Below are positions 26,113 to 36,034 of a stretch of DNA of 64,000 bases, piece after piece. The stretch is from a bacterium. Its GTDB lineage: Bacteria > Armatimonadota > Zipacnadia > Zipacnadales > UBA11051. Location of the stretch: assembly GCA_030604405.1 (NCBI GenBank), contig JAUVVY010000006.1, positions 14,589 to 78,588 of the forward strand, written 5' to 3'. A model generated the notes under the pieces. That model saw nothing but the letters and a program-made list of their open reading frames with translations, was not told where the DNA came from and ran no database searches. The first letter of the stretch is position 1, and every line of letters begins with the position of its first letter. Made by a program: the position numbers and the translations under genes.

Positions 26113-27111
26113 TTACCACTCCACGGCGTTGGTGCGCAGTTCGTGCGAGCCGTCGGGCCGCGTCCACTCATAGAAAAAGTGCAGGTGGGTCTCCGTCGGC
26201 ACGACCTCGATGTAACGTATCGTCCTGGTTGCGTGCGGAGACAGCACGAAGGGACCGTCAAGCGTAATGCGCTCCCAGTGGCGCAGATCGTGGCTCACGC
26301 AGACGCCGGCTTTCTCCTCGTAATTCTCCTCGACACTGGCGCTGCCATCGTAGAAGCCGATATACACCGGCGGCGTGTAGAGTACCGAACTCAGGCGCGT
26401 GCAGTACTGGTCCCAGCCGCTGTCGGGTGGCGTCAATATATCGCCCCGCCAGATCCAGTCAATCCCATTGCCGCTGGTGGCCAGCCCGCTGTGCGATTTG
26501 ACGATGCCGGTGTTAAAAACGTCGCCGGTGCCATGCATCTTCTCTCCCATGCCGGCGTCAGCAGCCCTGGGGTTCGGCGCATAGCTGACGATCATGTGCA
26601 GCAGGCCACCGATATTGTAGATGACTGGGTCCTTGACGCCCTCTGCATCGCAGTCGTCGGCATTGAGTATGGGGACGCGGTTGGTTACGTCGAACTTGTC
26701 CGGAGCGGCGGCCTCGGTCAGCTCTATGCACCAGCGGCCGTCCTGATCCACAAATGACATATACAGCCGCCACAGATCATCGGCGGCCTTGAACAGGCAG
26801 GCTTTCTCCATTGATTGCGTGTCAATCTCTTCTTTAGTGGCGTTCCAGATATCCTCAAAGTGGTAGCCGTCGTCGCTGGCAGCCACGCGGCAATCCACCC
26901 CGCGTCCCAGCTCTCGCGGCTTGCGCAGCCGATAGTACAGGTAGAATCTGGAAGAAGCTGCGTCATACATGGCGCTGCAGCCGCCGGCCCACCAGCCGAC
27001 GCCCTCTCCGAGCGGCTCTTTGACTGTGAGGCCCTCAGCAGGGTCAAAAAGTGGTATCCGGGCCATGTAACGCGCTGCGCGGCTTTGCCAATTTCTATCA
27101 TCAGTCTCCAT
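26113..27111 (-). CDS. Putative five-bladed beta-propeller glycosidase (GH32/43/130-like)
   Basis: FYLYYR, SDDGYHFE, WRLYMS, GVKDPVI, SHDLRHWER blade motifs; AGGAG RBS. Confidence 0.65.
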   Translation of the reverse strand: METDDRNWQSRAARYMARIPLFDPAEGLTVKEPLGEGVGWWAGGCSAMYDAASSRFYLYYRLRKPRELGRGVDCRVAASDDGYHFEDIWNATKEEIDTQSMEKACLFKAADDLWRLYMSFVDQDGRWCIELTEAAAPDKFDVTNRVPILNADDCDAEGVKDPVIYNIGGLLHMIVSYAPNPRAADAGMGEKMHGTGDVFNTGIVKSHSGLATSGNGIDWIWRGDILTPPDSGWDQYCTRLSSVLYTPPVYIGFYDGSASVEENYEEKAGVCVSHDLRHWERITLDGPFVLSPHATRTIRYIEVVPTETHLHFFYEWTRPDGSHELRTNAVEW

Positions 27112-27184: not shown

Positions 27185-27213
27185 TTGTCAGCGGCTGCCA
27201 TCACCTCTATAAT
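27185..27213 (+). promoter_or_regulatory. Sigma70-type promoter TTGTCA-17-TATAAT
   Basis: -35 at 27185-27190, -10 at 27208-27213, pointing at the HEAT-repeat operon. Confidence 0.75.
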
Positions 27214-27443
27214 TCAATGGTAATACCTATTTTATCCGTCCACGACTGAATTCCTCTCTACCGGGAAGGTAAATCGCGGGCTTTGGAGAAGGATTTCTGT
27301 GCCATGCCGGAGAATTATCTCTGGTTGACGCTGGCAAGCTTGACCGCCGGCGCTAGTATGATGCGCCACAGCATTGCAGCTCATTACTACTGTCGGCCGA
27401 CAGACAGTACTGGCATATTTGCCTTTTCGAGGAGTTGACATCA

Positions 27444-30074
27444 GTGGACGAACGCACCAGGCGGCAAATAGACTGGATAGTAATTATCGGGGTCGTTGCC
27501 TGTTTAATCGTCTGGGGTATCGGTCGTAGCCAGCGGATGGCCCGCATGCAGAATCAGCTCGGGAGCGGGACGCCAGACCAACAGATAAAGGCGGCCCAGA
27601 CACTCATTGACGGTCGCATTCTCGCTGATGCGGTTAAGGACCAGCCGCGTTGGGTACAGGAGCGCGTTGTTTCGGCGGTGGCTCAGATCGGCACCGCCCA
27701 GGCCTGGTACCAGCTCTTGACGGCGTGGTATCTGCTCGACGCCCCGGTGCAGGCGCGCGCCACCGAGCTGCTCACCAACGCCGGCACCACGGCGATCCCT
27801 ACACTTGTGGAAGCCCTCAGAGACAAGGACGCCAATACCCGCAAAGGCGTCAATGCCGTTCTGATTGCAATAGGCGAGCCGGTTATCCCCTACCTCCTGC
27901 CGCTGATGGACGCCTGGGATGACTACGTGCGAGCAGGCGTCAGCGCCGTGCTCGGCGGCATCGGTGAGCCCGCGATAGACGAAGTCATCGCTGTTGTCAA
28001 GAAGACCGCCCCGGGTGCCGATCAAGACTCTGAAGAGTACCTTCGCGAGCGAACCGCCGCCCAAGCTGCGCTCAAGGTAATGAAGGCCGGGGCCTTCGAC
28101 GCAATCGTCAAGGACTTGCTTACTGACCCCAACACGGACACGCGCGGCATCGGCGTAACACTGCTCGGGGCTATTGCCGATCAATCACTCGTAACCCCCA
28201 TCCCGCCTGAGGAAGCTGCCGGGGTACTCTCTCCGCTGCTGGCGAGCCTGCAGAATGACAATAGCTATGCAGTACGCCGCAAAGCGGCGCTCTCGCTTGG
28301 GCTGCTCGGCGCGGTCGGACGCGAAAACGGCGCGGGCGCACCCCTCATCGCCCGCTTGCAGAATCCTAGCGAGCGCCCTGACGTGCGCGCAGCGGCTGCC
28401 GAGGCTCTGGGCAAGCTTGCCGACCCGGCCGCGGCCGCGCCACTCGTACAGGTCCTGATCAACAGCCGTCAAGGCATCGCCGACGAGCTGGTCCGGGCGC
28501 TGGAGAGGATCGGCCCCGCCGCAGTAACCCCACTGGCGCAAGCAATCACTCACCCTTCCGCGGAAGTACAAGTGCTAGCCGTGCGCGCACTGTCAAATAT
28601 CGGCGGGACCGGGCCGGTCGTGCCGCTCGCTACAGCGCTTTCCACAGCTTCGGCCCCGGCGGTTCGTCGAGGTGCCGCCGAGGCGCTTCGGGCGCGGGCT
28701 GCCGGCAACCTCTCTGTCCATGTCGGCACCATCGTGGGGCCACTGACCAAGGCACTTTCTGACCCGGATTGGCACGTTTACTATGCAGCGCGTGACGCCC
28801 TGAGCAAGTGCGGCCCCGCTGTTGTCCCAGCCCTCTTGCAGGTGCTTGGTGGCGATCACGTCCGCGCGGCTCACATGGCCCAGCAGGCCCTGGTCCGCAT
28901 CGGCAAACCAGCCATCAGCGAGCTGATTGGCGCGCTCAAACAGGCGCACAGCAACGCGCGTCTGGCCAGGTGGGCCGCCATCGCGCTAGGTGAGCTCGGT
29001 CACGAGGCTGTCAAGCCGGTCTCCGCGATACTTGGGGATGCTACTCAGCCCACCACGGTTCGCGAGGCGGCCATTGTTGCTCTCGGCCGCACTCGCAGCA
29101 AGGATGCACTACCAGTTCTGCAGGAGGCATATTCCGGAAGTCAGCCGCCTGTCGCCAAAGCGGTTCTGGAGGCGGTCGGCAAGATCAGTTGCGAAGGTGG
29201 TGTGGACATCTTACTCGATGGTCTCCAGGCCGCCTCGCCCGGCGTGCGCGACACTGCCACGGACACGCTCATCCAGTGGCGCTTGGGGCAACCGGAAGGC
29301 AAGCTCAGACAGATGCTACAAGCTGAGGACAAGGACCTTCAGTACCGCGCAGCAATCGTCCTGGTGCTTGGCACATCGGCTCGCGCCGAGACCTTCTCGT
29401 TCGCCGGAATTGGTGGCGTCACAGAAGTCGAACTTGCCCCAGCCGTGCGCGGCAAGGTCGGCACGCTCCTTTCCGAGGCGGCCGCTGACGACAGCGCTAC
29501 CCCCACCGTGCGCCACTATGCCATCAAAGCACTTGGACAGATGGGCTACACTGAGGGCCTGGCCGTCCTGGGCGAACTGCTCAAGTCTGGCGGAAAATAC
29601 GCCGCCGACGCCGGACAGTCGGTGGCCTGGATTGGCATAAAGACTGCGGAAACCGAAGCCGATGAAGACACAGGGCAACTCAGTGAAGCAGCGAAGTTGC
29701 TGATTGGCCTGTTGACTGACCCAGACAGCAGCGATGATATCAGAGTGCAGGCTGCCGTCGCGCTGGCGATGATGCAGGCCGGCCCGGTCGAGGCGATGAC
29801 TCAAGAACTCGAGGGTGCTCCTGACGATATCAAGCCATGGCTGGCAGCCACACTGGGCGCGGCTGGCAGGTATGCGACAGAAGAAATCTATGAGACGTAC
29901 AAGCGTGCCAAGGACCCCGCATATCGCATGTGGCTTGCCGTCACCATGCAGTGCATCGGGGACGACAAGTCCCTAAAGACGCTCAAGCAGATACCTGAGC
30001 AGGAACAGCCGGACGAGGCGAAGAGTGCCGCAGCATTGGCACTGACCGCCCAGATACGCCTGCAAAAGAAGTAG
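27444..30074 (+). CDS. Membrane-anchored HEAT-repeat (PBS-lyase-like) protein, about 876 aa
   Basis: GAGGAG RBS then GTG 27444; N-terminal TM; many repeats of the type VRxAAAxALGxIGxxAVxPLxxAL. Confidence 0.88.
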   Translation: MDERTRRQIDWIVIIGVVACLIVWGIGRSQRMARMQNQLGSGTPDQQIKAAQTLIDGRILADAVKDQPRWVQERVVSAVAQIGTAQAWYQLLTAWYLLDAPVQARATELLTNAGTTAIPTLVEALRDKDANTRKGVNAVLIAIGEPVIPYLLPLMDAWDDYVRAGVSAVLGGIGEPAIDEVIAVVKKTAPGADQDSEEYLRERTAAQAALKVMKAGAFDAIVKDLLTDPNTDTRGIGVTLLGAIADQSLVTPIPPEEAAGVLSPLLASLQNDNSYAVRRKAALSLGLLGAVGRENGAGAPLIARLQNPSERPDVRAAAAEALGKLADPAAAAPLVQVLINSRQGIADELVRALERIGPAAVTPLAQAITHPSAEVQVLAVRALSNIGGTGPVVPLATALSTASAPAVRRGAAEALRARAAGNLSVHVGTIVGPLTKALSDPDWHVYYAARDALSKCGPAVVPALLQVLGGDHVRAAHMAQQALVRIGKPAISELIGALKQAHSNARLARWAAIALGELGHEAVKPVSAILGDATQPTTVREAAIVALGRTRSKDALPVLQEAYSGSQPPVAKAVLEAVGKISCEGGVDILLDGLQAASPGVRDTATDTLIQWRLGQPEGKLRQMLQAEDKDLQYRAAIVLVLGTSARAETFSFAGIGGVTEVELAPAVRGKVGTLLSEAAADDSATPTVRHYAIKALGQMGYTEGLAVLGELLKSGGKYAADAGQSVAWIGIKTAETEADEDTGQLSEAAKLLIGLLTDPDSSDDIRVQAAVALAMMQAGPVEAMTQELEGAPDDIKPWLAATLGAAGRYATEEIYETYKRAKDPAYRMWLAVTMQCIGDDKSLKTLKQIPEQEQPDEAKSAAALALTAQIRLQKK

Positions 30075-30141
30075 CTACACCACCGCCACTAACATCTCAG
30101 AGTTGGCCGCTGGAGTTTTTCACGGCCCGGGCGAGGGTTGA

Positions 30142-31104
30142 TTGCTGGTGAATACACGGAGCATCATGATAGTAGCTGTCATCCTGATAATACTGGCCGC
30201 CATTTATGGCATTACTCTCTACCAGAGAGGCGTCAAGCTTCAGCAATACGTGGTCGAGCTCGACAGCGACGACTCCGCTGCCGTCCTCAAGGCGATAGAC
30301 GGGCTGAGTTCTTCCGGGCGCAGGATTGTGGGACGCGTGGACTTTTATCTTGACAACGTCCGTCCTGAGGTCCGCTCGCGCGCTGTGATGGTAATCGGCA
30401 CCTGCGGTAGTAGCGCTGACAGCGCCATCATCTTCCCGCTGCTCGAGGGCGACGATGACAAATTCGTGCGCCGCGACGCGGCCGTGGCGCTCGGTAAGCT
30501 CGGAGGCGACGGGGTAGTAGCTGCTCTGACCAAAAAGTTGGGAGACGGTTCCGAGGATGTTTTGGTGCGTGCGGCCGCTGCTAATTCCCTGGCCATGCTG
30601 GGCGCAGCCGAAAGCATCGCCGGGTTGGTCGCCGCTCTGGCCAACCGTCCTCCAGTTCTCGAGCCGGTCTCTGAAGAAGATGCCGAGGCGGAAGAGGCGC
30701 CTGAAGACGCCACCCTCCCGCTGCGTATGGCCGCAGCAGAAGCACTCGGCCGCTTGGGAACCGATGCAGGCGTCAAGGCACTCGGCGAAGCTGTGTTAGA
30801 GAACACCGAACCCGGCGAGCGCGTCCGGGCCGTAGCAGCTTACGCACTCGGAGACGCAGCACTCAACAATGACAACGAAGAGGAAATGAATACGCTGCTG
30901 GAGAGCCTGCTCACCGCTAGCGGCGATAGTATCGGCGACGTGCGAATTGCCGCCATTCAGTCGCTCGGAAAGGCCACACTCATACCAGATACGTTCCAAG
31001 CAAGGCTTGACAAGGTCTTGACCGCTGCGGTGGCAGACGAGCACTACTGGGTGCGCGAGGCTGCTAAGGAGGCCCGACGCAACGTCGGCCCACTGGGTAC
31101 CTAG
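30142..31104 (+). CDS. Membrane-anchored HEAT-repeat protein
   Basis: N-terminal TM; repeats VRSRAVMVIG, VRRDAAVALG, VRAAAANSLA, VRAVAAYALG, VRIAAIQSLG. Confidence 0.87.
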   Translation: MLVNTRSIMIVAVILIILAAIYGITLYQRGVKLQQYVVELDSDDSAAVLKAIDGLSSSGRRIVGRVDFYLDNVRPEVRSRAVMVIGTCGSSADSAIIFPLLEGDDDKFVRRDAAVALGKLGGDGVVAALTKKLGDGSEDVLVRAAAANSLAMLGAAESIAGLVAALANRPPVLEPVSEEDAEAEEAPEDATLPLRMAAAEALGRLGTDAGVKALGEAVLENTEPGERVRAVAAYALGDAALNNDNEEEMNTLLESLLTASGDSIGDVRIAAIQSLGKATLIPDTFQARLDKVLTAAVADEHYWVREAAKEARRNVGPLGT

Positions 31105-31157
31105 CTTTTGCTTACCTGCCGCTCTACGCACTTCATCCACATTCCGGAGGGAAACTG

Positions 31158-31751
31158 ATGGGCTTGGATCTGAGAACTGCGGCTTTCATGTTGGCCCTGG
31201 CAGCGCTGGTTATGGCTGGCGGCTGCGCGCTCGACCCGATGGAGGAGCTTGGCAACCAAATACAGTCTCAGGATGTGGGGACGCGGACTCAGGCTATCAT
31301 CGGGCTGGCTAACCTCAAGGATCAGCGCGCGACCGAGGAGCTACTCGGAGTGCTCGAAAAAGACGACGAGCTGTTTGATCTGGCAGCCGTCGCTCTGGTC
31401 AAGAAAGGGCGCGAGATCGAACAGCGAGACGACAAGGCGCTCAACAGGATTGTTGAGGACGCGGGCAAGATCCTCAGCAATGCCCATCTGGCCGAACGCT
31501 TCCGCGCCCGGGCCGCGTGGACGCTTGGCGAGATAGGCAGCCGGGAGGCAGTGGCGGTGTTGCTGACCGGCACCGTGGCAAAGGTGGGTGTGGTCGCGGC
31601 CGCACTGGTACGCGAGTACAGTACACAAGCTCTCGAGAAACTCGGCTACTACTCCGACGGCCGCGCCTATGAAATTCCCATGGGAACGCTTCTCGAACAG
31701 CTTGACATCCTTCCGGAGCCCGAGCCGCTCGCCCTGCCGGAAGTCGAGTAA
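31158..31751 (+). CDS. HEAT-repeat lipoprotein
   Basis: GGAGG RBS; lipobox MAGG-C; repeats TRTQAIIGLA, FRARAAWTLGEIG. Confidence 0.83.
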   Translation: MGLDLRTAAFMLALAALVMAGGCALDPMEELGNQIQSQDVGTRTQAIIGLANLKDQRATEELLGVLEKDDELFDLAAVALVKKGREIEQRDDKALNRIVEDAGKILSNAHLAERFRARAAWTLGEIGSREAVAVLLTGTVAKVGVVAAALVREYSTQALEKLGYYSDGRAYEIPMGTLLEQLDILPEPEPLALPEVE

Positions 31752-31790: not shown

Positions 31791-33536
31791 GTGGCCGGGC
31801 TTGGCCAGCGAGTCCGGTCGCATTGCTTTCACATCTCGCCACTAAGCCCAGACGCCGATCGAGTGCCTCTATTGAAACGCACTGCGACGCATGATCCCGC
31901 GACGCGCCCCAGCCCTACGCGGACGGCAGCGCTGTGCGCAGCCGTAGCGGCCACTCTCCTCTTGCTCACCCACGCTTCCCACGCGACCGACCGGCCGACG
32001 CGCGCCTTTCCCGTAGTCGGCGCCGACTTTGTAGCCCAGGCACAAGACGATCTTTCACTTGGCCTGACTCACGACCCCTACGCAAAGATCGCCCTGCCGC
32101 GGTGTGATTTGATGGGTGGCGCCGAGCGCCCTGACACGACTGCCCGGTGGGGCCCACCGATTGCGCAGCGCCTTCCCCGAGGCGTCAGGATGTCGGCTCC
32201 GCTCGACCTCGCGCTTCAGTACCGCGTCCCATTGGAGTTCTGTCCCGACTACTGGCCAGAACACGAGCCTGGCAAGACCCTCGCCGAGTTCTGCGAGGAT
32301 GAGTACCTCGGCTACTGGCCGCTGGAGCAAGACCTCGCAGACAATCCCTTCGCCATTGCTAAGCAGCAGGTGGAAGCCCTTAACGAGGACCGTGCTGCCG
32401 TCCAACGGCGCGTCACCGCAGCTCTCGCCCACTGGTGGCTCAACGGTCACACCACCGAGGCTGTTGGCAGTACCGTATTAGGGGCTCTGGCCAGTGAGAA
32501 GCAACTCCACAACGACATAGTTGTGGAGATGACCAAGGACCTGCTGCTTGAGATCGGTCCTGAGAGCCTCTGGCAGGTGGTGGCCGACGAAACGTCGCTG
32601 GCGGTTGATTTGCGGATAAGCTCATCGCTTTCTCACGACACTGCAGTCAGCATGTCGAGGATGCTGCAATTGGCGGCCCAGCGCGGTATCAACGCGGTGG
32701 TGGTAGCTGACCCCGGCCACATCGGCGGCGCCCAGGAAGCCGCCCGCATAGCTGAGAAGCTCAAGTGCCAGGGGCTGCTGCCCGAGAGCTTCCAAGTTGT
32801 AACCGGGGAGCATGTCAACTGTTTAGGTGGCACCCTCACCGCTGTGGGCATAAAGTACCGCGTCCTGGAAGGAATGACCTTCGAGCGCACCATTGACGAG
32901 ATTCACGCTCAAGGCGGCGTGGCTCTTCTCAATCATCCCGGGAAGCTGGGTGGAATGGATCTGCTGCGCCGCCTTGATGTAGATGGTTACTTCATTCAGC
33001 CTTCTCTGTTCGAGTTGTTCCGCACATTGAATATCCTGTATGATCCCCAACTGGCCGACAAACCGGCGCTCTACGGAAGTCACACCCGCCACGCCCAGGG
33101 CGTGGGGCTGCCCTATTCGGCAGTCATCACTCAAAGCGCCGAGCCTGAAGCGATCGTTGCAGCGTTGCGGCGCGGCGACGCCTACGCGGCAAGCAACCTC
33201 TATTTCCCGCTGATGGGGCTCCTCGTTCTCAAGCCGATTGCCTCTTTTGAGAAAACCCTCAACGGATACTTCATCGCTCACGACTGGCTCACCACTCACA
33301 CCCGGACGTTACTCAACGCCGACCACGTCATCATAACCACTACCTGGGATGAGAGCGTGCAGGGCCTGATGAGCCTTGACGACACGTTCAAGGAGATGCG
33401 TGCCATCTCTGATGGCGAATCGCCGCTGTTGCGTGCGCCCAAGATCACTTCTATCGCTGCCCAATACGGACCTTTACAGATACAATACTCGCGGCATACA
33501 GACGAAGTGTGGCTCCGAGGCAGGGCCAGCTTCTGA
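31791..33536 (+). CDS. Secreted protein with a degenerate PHP domain (start uncertain; 31863 or 31872 likely)
   Basis: Signal-like TAALCAAVAATLLLLTHASHA; PHP-like segments DLRISSSLSHD, RGINAVVVAD, TGEHV, IHAQGGVALLNHP, GSHTRH. Confidence 0.65.
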   Translation: MAGLGQRVRSHCFHISPLSPDADRVPLLKRTATHDPATRPSPTRTAALCAAVAATLLLLTHASHATDRPTRAFPVVGADFVAQAQDDLSLGLTHDPYAKIALPRCDLMGGAERPDTTARWGPPIAQRLPRGVRMSAPLDLALQYRVPLEFCPDYWPEHEPGKTLAEFCEDEYLGYWPLEQDLADNPFAIAKQQVEALNEDRAAVQRRVTAALAHWWLNGHTTEAVGSTVLGALASEKQLHNDIVVEMTKDLLLEIGPESLWQVVADETSLAVDLRISSSLSHDTAVSMSRMLQLAAQRGINAVVVADPGHIGGAQEAARIAEKLKCQGLLPESFQVVTGEHVNCLGGTLTAVGIKYRVLEGMTFERTIDEIHAQGGVALLNHPGKLGGMDLLRRLDVDGYFIQPSLFELFRTLNILYDPQLADKPALYGSHTRHAQGVGLPYSAVITQSAEPEAIVAALRRGDAYAASNLYFPLMGLLVLKPIASFEKTLNGYFIAHDWLTTHTRTLLNADHVIITTTWDESVQGLMSLDDTFKEMRAISDGESPLLRAPKITSIAAQYGPLQIQYSRHTDEVWLRGRASF

Positions 33537-35043: not shown

Positions 35044-35083
35044 TTTGGACAAGGCCCGCACGATACATTACGGAGGCGGCGTC

Positions 35084-36034
35084 ATGAGAGGTTGTCAACT
35101 GCTGTTGTACGTGATCTCGGTGTCCCTTGCAATAAGTCTGGCTGTGACGAGGCCCGCCAGCGCGATCACGCCTGATGTGCACTGGCACCCCACCTTTGAC
35201 GGCGCCCGAGCCCAGTCGGCACAAAGTGGCAAGCCGATCCTGGTCTTAGGCTACAGCCCGGATGATAGGCATTGTGAGACCCTCATCATCTCGATACTCA
35301 GACACCCGGACGTTGTCAAAGAACTCGGCAAGTTTGAATTGTTTGCCGCCAACGCCGACGATCCGGCACTCGGGCAGTTCTGTGCCACTTTCCGCATCGG
35401 CGTTGTGGACCAAACCGACACATGGATAACCCAATTCCCGGTCCTGCCGGTATTCCTATTTCTAGAAAACAATGCCCATGAGTACTTCCGCGATTACGGC
35501 TACACTCCCGCCAGGCGCGGCAGCGAAAGGTCACGTGACCTCGCCATCGCGGGCGCCGCCTTTGCTCTGCGGCTGCAAAAGATTCAGCGGCTGATCGCTG
35601 GTCTGCGGCAGATCGCCGCCGGCCCCACTGCCACTGCGTATGCTCAGGTCGGCCACATTCTCATTGAGCTGGAGCATTTCGACGAGGCGCGGCCCCATCT
35701 ACAAAAGGCTGTGCAGCTTGACCCCACTAATGAAACCGGTGCCTTCGCTGATGCCTATCTGGACCTTATCGTCCTCGACATTGCCGAAAACCCGGGCCGT
35801 TCGCTGCAACAGCTCGACGATTTCGCGACCCGCTACGGTGAGAGCGACCGCTCACTCGAGGTCCGCTATTACAGGGGTGTGTGCCTGATAGCCCTGGAGA
35901 AGTATAAGCAGGCCCGCACGGTACTGCGCACCTTCGAGACCGGTGATCGGACCGCGCCTGAATTCGACTCCCCGTGGACTCCTCTTGCCTTAGGGTTGCT
36001 GCAACAGTTGGATAACCTGAAACTAGGCTTGTGA
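35084..36034 (+). CDS. Secreted thioredoxin-like plus TPR protein
   Basis: Signal peptide; WHPTFDGARAQSAQSGKPILV...DRHC thioredoxin-like N-terminus, PVFLFL; C-terminal TPRs. Confidence 0.75.
   Translation: MRGCQLLLYVISVSLAISLAVTRPASAITPDVHWHPTFDGARAQSAQSGKPILVLGYSPDDRHCETLIISILRHPDVVKELGKFELFAANADDPALGQFCATFRIGVVDQTDTWITQFPVLPVFLFLENNAHEYFRDYGYTPARRGSERSRDLAIAGAAFALRLQKIQRLIAGLRQIAAGPTATAYAQVGHILIELEHFDEARPHLQKAVQLDPTNETGAFADAYLDLIVLDIAENPGRSLQQLDDFATRYGESDRSLEVRYYRGVCLIALEKYKQARTVLRTFETGDRTAPEFDSPWTPLALGLLQQLDNLKLGL

Follow-up and report, generated by a model that had tools for sequence, protein, structure and literature searches.

Three HEAT-repeat genes on one strand

The stretch of DNA analysed here (64,000 nucleotides (nt), hereafter the window) belongs to a metagenome-assembled genome of the phylum Armatimonadota from marine sediment, and coordinates given without a contig name are positions in this window. 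We observed that it carries three consecutive genes for HEAT-repeat proteins, which we refer to as the large, middle and small HEAT proteins and, collectively, as the trio (Table 1). The trio is a genuine set of scaffold proteins, tethered to a membrane, restricted to one lineage and probably part of the cell envelope. Its members are three new, uncharacterized families of a known kind of protein, in an unusual arrangement that is specific to the lineage.

PBS-type HEAT repeats extend over almost the whole length of all three proteins. The large, middle and small proteins matched HEAT_2 (PF13646) in Pfam with E-values of 8.6e-62, 7.3e-23 and 5e-9, respectively (205.9, 81.1 and 36.8 bits, all exceeding the gathering cut-off of 27.7), and no domain other than the HEAT type was found for any of them in Pfam or NCBIfam. 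A preliminary description of this DNA had proposed three consecutive HEAT-repeat genes lacking a catalytic domain, and the open reading frames (ORFs), the HEAT_2 scores and the helical models agree with it. The trio proteins are thus non-catalytic, in that no catalytic domain was detected. The families also have sequence motifs of their own, namely ALVKKGRE, RARAAWxLGEIGDR, DQPRWVQ and DWHVYYAARDAL.

AlphaFold2 models built on orthologue alignments cover the large and small proteins, while the middle protein was judged by its HEAT family matches. Both models are solenoids of stacked helical pairs. The large protein was predicted as all-alpha, with about 48 helices (predicted local distance difference test score (pLDDT) 91.9, predicted template modelling score 0.70). 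The model of the small protein (pLDDT 94.7) consists of four helix pairs plus one short hairpin, and it ends in an extended C-terminal tail. This tail has no secondary structure, and its block-mean pLDDT is about 95-96 as far as about residue 190 and 82 for the last residues; since the confidence is high in spite of the lack of secondary structure, we infer that the tail packs against its own solenoid in the model. The preliminary description had also pointed to an acidic loop in each of the two larger proteins, and both loops are present. That of the large protein (AETEADEDTG) sits in its least conserved part. That of the middle protein (SEEDAEAEEAPED) is a Pro-rich insert that is found in most of 20 aligned orthologues, varies in length, often follows RPP and is reduced in the two most divergent orthologues.

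When the models were compared with folds in the PDB, the small protein matched alphaRep binders, deoxyhypusine hydroxylase and a bilin lyase-isomerase with template modelling scores (TM-scores) no higher than 0.55, and its identity to alphaRep was 27-31% across about 140 columns. The large protein matched CAND1, transportin and SF3B1 at TM-scores of 0.2-0.3. For these two proteins the fold searches gave generic solenoids only. The bilin lyase-isomerase match, together with NCBIfam matches to CpcF, NblB and CpcE (E-values of 1e-21 to 1e-12), would fit bilin-lyase/NblB-like enzymes or chaperones of the CpcE/F family. We rejected this assignment and give it next to no weight, since the large protein scores 77, 69 and 48 bits where 220, 300 and 330 are required, a likeness at the level of the repeats only. 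The middle protein reaches 46 bits against the phycobilin lyase/NblB equivalogs of NCBIfam (cut-offs 220-330). The membrane or lipid anchors of the trio also speak against such enzymes, as does a host lineage of sediment heterotrophs (PMC10290634).

The large gene starts at GTG 27444, as had been proposed, and not at the upstream TTG 27435. Its Shine-Dalgarno site is suitably placed, a stop codon separates the two possible starts in one orthologue (locus L003), and comparison of orthologues identifies the in-frame 'EEL' upstream as this Shine-Dalgarno site. The middle gene more likely starts at GTG 30148 (318 amino acids (aa)) than at TTG 30142, since GAGGG lies 10 nt upstream of the GTG and the orthologues begin with V-N-R-R-T. 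Each gene of the trio has its own Shine-Dalgarno site, three in total. The genes are spaced by 53-73 nt here, and by 4-57 nt or overlapping at other loci. With a shared strand, small gaps and an order that is kept across divergent genomes, they read as one compact, operon-like unit. A single promoter-like match to the consensus was found between 26900 and 36200, and a hairpin behind the small gene possibly marks the end of the unit. The 230-nt leader (27214-27443) and the operon gave zero Rfam matches.

Table 1. Features of the trio locus (positions in the window)
Feature	Position	Strand	Details
Promoter-like site, TTGTCA-17-TATAAT	27185..27213	+	11/12 consensus match; about 230 nt 5' of large gene
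Large HEAT solenoid gene	27444..30074	+	876 aa; starts with GTG, 9 nt after Shine-Dalgarno sequence GAGGAG
Single transmembrane helix, large protein aa 9-27	27468..27524	+	MDERTRRQ before, RSQRMAR after
Acidic loop AETEADEDTG, large protein aa 735-744	29646..29675	+	pLDDT dip to 72-75
Middle HEAT solenoid gene	30142..31104	+	320 aa from TTG 30142 or 318 aa from GTG 30148
Single transmembrane helix, middle protein aa 7-27	30160..30222	+	QRGVK after
Acidic, Pro-rich loop SEEDAEAEEAPED, middle protein aa 177-189	30670..30708	+	Orthologue alignment
Small HEAT lipoprotein gene	31158..31751	+	197 aa; ATG 31158, 6 nt after GGAGGG
Predicted signal peptide and lipobox to Cys23 (…LVMAGG-C), then ALDPMEE and first HEAT helix	31158..31226	+	Homologue comparison
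Extended C-terminal tail, small protein aa 162-197, GRAxEIPMGxL…LPxPxPL	31641..31748	+	Conserved in alignment
Putative terminator, imperfect 13-pair hairpin with weak T tract	31791..31821	+	40 nt 3' of small gene; pattern match
PHP-like protein, exported, facultative neighbour	31863..33536	+	Likely start GTG 31863 or TTG 31872
Exported thioredoxin-like and tetratricopeptide-repeat protein	35081..36034	+	Single Cys, no CxxC

Conservation of the trio and its neighbours

The nearest public relative, labelled Candidatus Zipacnadia, shares 88% identity in the large protein, for which about 71 full-length orthologue clusters were collected (34-88% identity). A profile of the small protein was run against 44 sampled genomes of the host order, which represent 7 families and 22 genera, and 43 of them have a single copy. 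The same profile found none in 8 genomes from other orders of the class, and weak generic HEAT matches only in the rest of the phylum. In an exhaustive search with this profile, most of what was found were long generic HEAT proteins, whose score comes from their many repeats; the small-lipoprotein family proper comprises about 20 clusters at 50% identity. The large-protein profile was run against 79 genomes of the class. Within the order, an orthologue, either full-length or truncated by a contig end, was missed in three genomes only, whose assemblies are 59-87% complete. Beyond the order, four genomes, which belong to three further families (f51-53), also have a full-length orthologue, and families f8-f12 gave partial generic matches only. 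The sole genome of the order that lacked the small protein also lacked the large protein and the thioredoxin-like neighbour gene described below.

Scattered homologues, which would have spoken against the preliminary description, were not what we found: the order is large-middle-small on one strand at every one of about 25 intact loci that were read, across 10 GTDB families (at a few more loci the trio is interrupted by contig ends). The flanks vary, with addB and a gene for a 332-aa protein upstream in some families and different genes elsewhere. The preliminary description had suggested examining conservation of the operon across the phylum: the operon is conserved, but not phylum-wide. By these comparisons the trio is a single-copy, conserved unit that occurs only within a portion of a single class. 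Family f6 (loci L008 and L050; about 5280-13600 in L008) is the most divergent of the order, and there the three proteins are enlarged to 1072, 365 and 257 aa. Directly 3' of this trio lie an ABC transporter ATPase and two membrane proteins, which are not the usual neighbours.

Within the trio the proteins resemble each other only distantly: one local match reaches 29% identity over 190 residues at an E-value of 6e-7, and the other match has an E-value of 4e-4. Because of this distant likeness, the large, middle and small proteins are best described as old, distinct orthologous groups and not as recent duplicates. The host genome contains only 17 HEAT-like ORFs in total, and with three distinct orthologous groups side by side among so few, the adjacency of the genes is not due to chance. 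The three might still be diverged tandem HEAT paralogues that are adjacent by descent within one clade and have no joint function. HEAT genes do cluster by duplication in the host genome (a run of three on contig C69 and a run of two on C6), and the linkage evidence all comes from one class. We nevertheless regard this explanation as improbable, given that the trio proteins form distinct old groups with different anchors and that their genes are tightly spaced or overlapping. The gene order is also invariant over 10 families against reshuffled flanks. In addition, almost every genome of the order has one copy of the small protein, and very few of them are without the large protein.

The cytoplasmic paralogues in the runs on contigs C69 (90205-93826) and C6 (131255-132981) lack a signal peptide and have a common N-terminus (…RRRLAMWPFKPNIEKMEKRGN…). 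By sequence, these runs seem to have arisen by recent tandem duplication, which sets them apart from the trio.

The most constant neighbour of the trio is a thioredoxin-like protein with tetratricopeptide repeats (TPR), whose gene is adjacent or near in most loci. In most orthologues its thioredoxin motif is C-x-x-M instead of CxxC. A profile of this protein gave full-length matches in most of the trio-bearing genomes tested, weaker or partial matches in f6, f52 and f53, and domain-level matches only in the families of the class that lack the trio. The second neighbour, the PHP-like protein mentioned in the preliminary description, is not a constant partner: the gene adjoins the trio in about half of the loci and is absent there in the closest relative (L001). 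The orthologues of the PHP-like protein have signal-like N-termini. Six of the seven that were read end in a C-terminal F or W after a beta-strand-like pattern, and the ORF of the seventh extends past the usual end. The called GTG start of the PHP-like ORF falls within the hairpin at 31791-31821 and the orthologue alignments begin 23-74 residues after it, so the true start probably lies 3' of the hairpin. Both of these conserved neighbours carry signal peptides, as judged by eye.

On the other side of the trio, the 332-aa protein (26113-27111, minus strand) is 55-93% identical across families, and its gene stays between addB and the HEAT operon in f1, f4, f5 and f7. It had no sequence match in Pfam, NCBIfam or the PDB.

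Membrane anchors and orientation of the solenoids

We examined the anchor of the small protein by comparison with its homologues. The lipobox Cys is invariant in the roughly 130 homologues inspected, and the homologue motif L-[AST]-G-C-[AG]-[ILV]-D-P-[MI]-E runs directly into the first HEAT helix. Lgt (PF01790, 204 bits) and LspA (PF01252, 115.7 bits) are encoded next to each other on contig C27 of the host genome. Since the signal peptide, the lipobox, the kept Cys and Lgt/LspA are all present, the small protein is, on sequence grounds, a lipoprotein located outside the cytoplasm, in agreement with the preliminary description. The host genome encodes an Omp85 protein, and the host class is reported to carry lipopolysaccharide genes (PMC10290634). 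LolA (PF03548) was not detected in the host genome, and for this reason we think it probable that the small lipoprotein is retained in the cytoplasmic membrane, together with the large and middle proteins.

The family of the small lipoprotein, with its CA-x-DP-M/I-E start and the motifs ALVKKGRE and RARAAWxLGEIGDR, is conserved enough to serve as a marker gene of the clade. Among distant family members, P0328 and P0343 have an extra C-terminal domain of about 250 aa, and others have long acidic, low-complexity tails.

The large and middle proteins each have one N-terminal hydrophobic segment of 19-21 residues (Kyte-Doolittle mean of about 2.3-3.0 for the 19-mer) with Arg before it, which bears out the earlier observation of basic residues followed by one transmembrane helix. 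In all three proteins the HEAT repeats begin within a few residues of the membrane anchor, essentially without a linker, and in the model of the large protein the transmembrane helix and the first post-membrane helix form a single helix (aa 3-41). A motif said to be shared behind the two transmembrane helices, R..(M/L)Q...L.S.(D/T)...A...L, has a literal match in neither protein nor in any of 90 orthologues. The likeness of the two regions is loose and amounts to the consensus of a first HEAT repeat.

We favour the reading that the trio works jointly as a membrane-anchored HEAT scaffold, with its solenoids at the outer side of the cytoplasmic membrane, and we put its probability at roughly 0.45. 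For the large and middle proteins this requires a C-out orientation, towards which we lean because of the basic pair in the N-tail, the 4-5 Lys or Arg in the large-protein N-tail of the divergent families f51-53, and the exported HEAT ORFs and neighbours. Among 70 large orthologues the pair reads RR in 54, RQ in 11 and KR in 2, and RH and NR also occur. An N-tail with 4-5 basic residues, as in f51-53, would hardly fit an N-out orientation. Under a rule of the TopPred kind, with long loops left out of account, both proteins would come out as N-in. Among the 14 other HEAT ORFs of the host genome, seven have a signal peptide or lipobox as judged by eye.

Several observations weigh against this reading. 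Both flanks of the transmembrane helix are basic, and by this measure the topology of the large and middle proteins is ambiguous. In the large protein (71 orthologues) the N-tail, with the consensus MDExTRRQ, contains on average 2.25 Lys plus Arg (K+R) and 2.1 Asp plus Glu (D+E), as compared with 3.2 K+R and 1.8 D+E in the 15 residues after the helix (YRRxExD…R); the C-flank has the higher K+R in 55 of the 71. The middle protein (40 sequences) behaves similarly, with 1.55 K+R in the N-tail (MNRRT) and 2.35 in the C-flank (WQRARET), and the N-tail is lower in 30 of the 40. Three penicillin-binding proteins of the host genome, which are certain to be N-in/C-out, show the opposite charge bias; these three N-termini make up the whole calibration and are too few to settle the matter, as ExbD is absent from the host genome (no ExbD/TolR homologue, PF02472, was detected). 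For the neighbours and the other HEAT ORFs, signal peptides were called by visual inspection. All of the conservation lies within one clade, and shared descent could explain part of the synteny and co-distribution. The promoter and terminator of the trio are known as pattern matches only, and the sole RNA run from the source sample yielded no reads of the locus. The preliminary description had assigned an N-in/C-out topology to the two larger proteins and placed all three solenoids in the periplasm. Of these assignments, one transmembrane helix in each larger protein and the export of the small protein hold. The orientation cannot be read from the sequence with K+R higher after the helix in most orthologues, and a periplasmic facing of the large and middle solenoids was not supported, the charge rules being in conflict: by the criterion for a type II signal anchor the C-flank is the more basic, yet the basic pair of the N-tail is conserved.

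The same charge bias, and its reversal in the truly C-out penicillin-binding proteins, would suit a split topology, in which the large and middle proteins are N-out/C-in with their solenoids on the cytoplasmic face and only the small lipoprotein is periplasmic. The outcome would be a two-sided membrane assembly, or two cytoplasmic scaffolds and an unrelated lipoprotein. Such an orientation would also be in line with RR or RK right after the transmembrane helix in most large orthologues and Q-R/K-x-x-R/K in most middle ones, with the classically cytoplasmic location of PBS-type HEAT proteins, and with six HEAT ORFs of the host genome that have no signal. N-out N-tails normally contain 0-1 basic residue, whereas here a basic pair is conserved and the divergent lineages have 4-5 Lys or Arg. 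Moreover, the net charge of the middle protein, when acidic residues and the N-terminus are counted, is not higher on the C side, and the conserved neighbours are exported proteins. We consider the split topology unlikely, if by no means far-fetched.

A variant of the favoured reading would accommodate the basic C-flanks through export by the twin-arginine translocation (Tat) system: the solenoids would fold in the cytoplasm and cross via Tat as signal anchors, so that basic residues after the hydrophobic segment are tolerated. The sequences T-R-R-Q-I-T-W (large) and N-R-R-T-V-T-L (middle) resemble S/T-R-R-x-F-L-K, two tatC genes are present in the host genome (C86:42279-42926 and C6:141107-141754), and Sec avoidance typically goes with basic residues behind the hydrophobic segment. 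We rejected Tat export as the principal explanation and hold it to be very improbable, since RR is not invariant (RQ, RH and NR also occur among the large orthologues, as counted above) and the segment is too hydrophobic, its length and Kyte-Doolittle mean being typical of Sec/signal recognition particle anchors. In the middle protein of the host genus there is only one R.

A candidate envelope scaffold and its relation to known systems

In the favoured reading of a joint scaffold, an uncleaved N-terminal transmembrane helix would anchor the 876-aa and 318-aa proteins and a lipid-modified Cys the 197-aa protein, and the small lipoprotein would be kept in the same membrane as the other two. The three would act jointly as a membrane-hugging, protein-binding scaffold. 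By analogy with alphaRep and importin-type solenoids, the concave grooves may bind extended segments of partner proteins, for which the co-conserved exported thioredoxin-like/TPR protein, and the PHP-like protein where it is present, are the likely candidates. A scaffold of the envelope is the most economical inference because the solenoids are non-catalytic, are anchored directly, belong to one conserved unit and include one extracytoplasmic member. The three proteins may also associate into a complex, as the preliminary description had proposed. One could go further and picture the trio and the thioredoxin-like/TPR protein, with or without the PHP-like pseudo-enzyme, as an undescribed envelope-organising apparatus of this Armatimonadota class, in which size-graded solenoids lie flat on the outer face of the cytoplasmic membrane as a lattice or spacer that positions non-catalytic partners. 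This we consider rather improbable.

If a periplasmic assembly is formed, the trio would show anchored envelope scaffolds built from HEAT solenoids in place of TPR ones, and it would mark a lineage-specific envelope feature in an uncultured and poorly understood diderm class of Armatimonadota. Our literature search found no published example of HEAT solenoids as anchored envelope scaffolds, and no paper on exported HEAT lipoproteins in Armatimonadota.

The preliminary description had likened the trio to the membrane-coat-like proteins of the Planctomycetes-Verrucomicrobia-Chlamydiae (PVC) bacteria, with which it has an alpha-solenoid and membrane association in common. The PVC proteins are peripheral and contain a beta-propeller, whereas the trio is transmembrane- or lipid-anchored and its host is an Armatimonadota and not a PVC bacterium. 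We rejected this analogy, as the models of the large and small proteins contain no beta-propeller, the middle protein matches HEAT families only, and the phylum is a different one.

In repeat type and fold the trio belongs with the PBS lyase HEAT-like and HEAT_2 proteins (PF03130, PF13646), including the alphaRep binders engineered from such repeats, which bind other proteins through their concave face and are the best structural matches of the small protein. The known PBS-HEAT members are soluble and mostly cytoplasmic, whereas the trio proteins are membrane- or lipid-anchored, have their own motifs and travel as a fixed trio.

LapB (YciM), ZipA and EzrA have an N-terminal transmembrane helix, are N-out/C-in and carry a cytoplasmic helical domain. 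They serve as the model for the split topology, as they resemble the transmembrane proteins of the trio in the single N-terminal transmembrane helix, the basic residues immediately behind it and the helical-repeat or coiled domain that comes next. A conserved basic pair like that of the large and middle proteins is missing from their N-tails, and there is no sequence relationship.

BamD, the N-domain of LpoA, and PilF/TadD are TPR lipoproteins, YfgM is anchored in the inner membrane, and CpoB is periplasmic and soluble. All of these alpha-solenoid adaptors of the Gram-negative envelope organise envelope machines by binding partners. The tethered adaptors among these (BamD, LpoA, PilF/TadD and YfgM) are like the trio in that non-catalytic helical repeats are held at the membrane by a lipid or an N-terminal helix. 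They are of the TPR/Sel1 type and have a defined partner machine, while the trio is of the HEAT type and no homology to them was detected. By this analogy of architecture, the trio most plausibly works in the manner of the tethered TPR adaptors of diderm envelopes.

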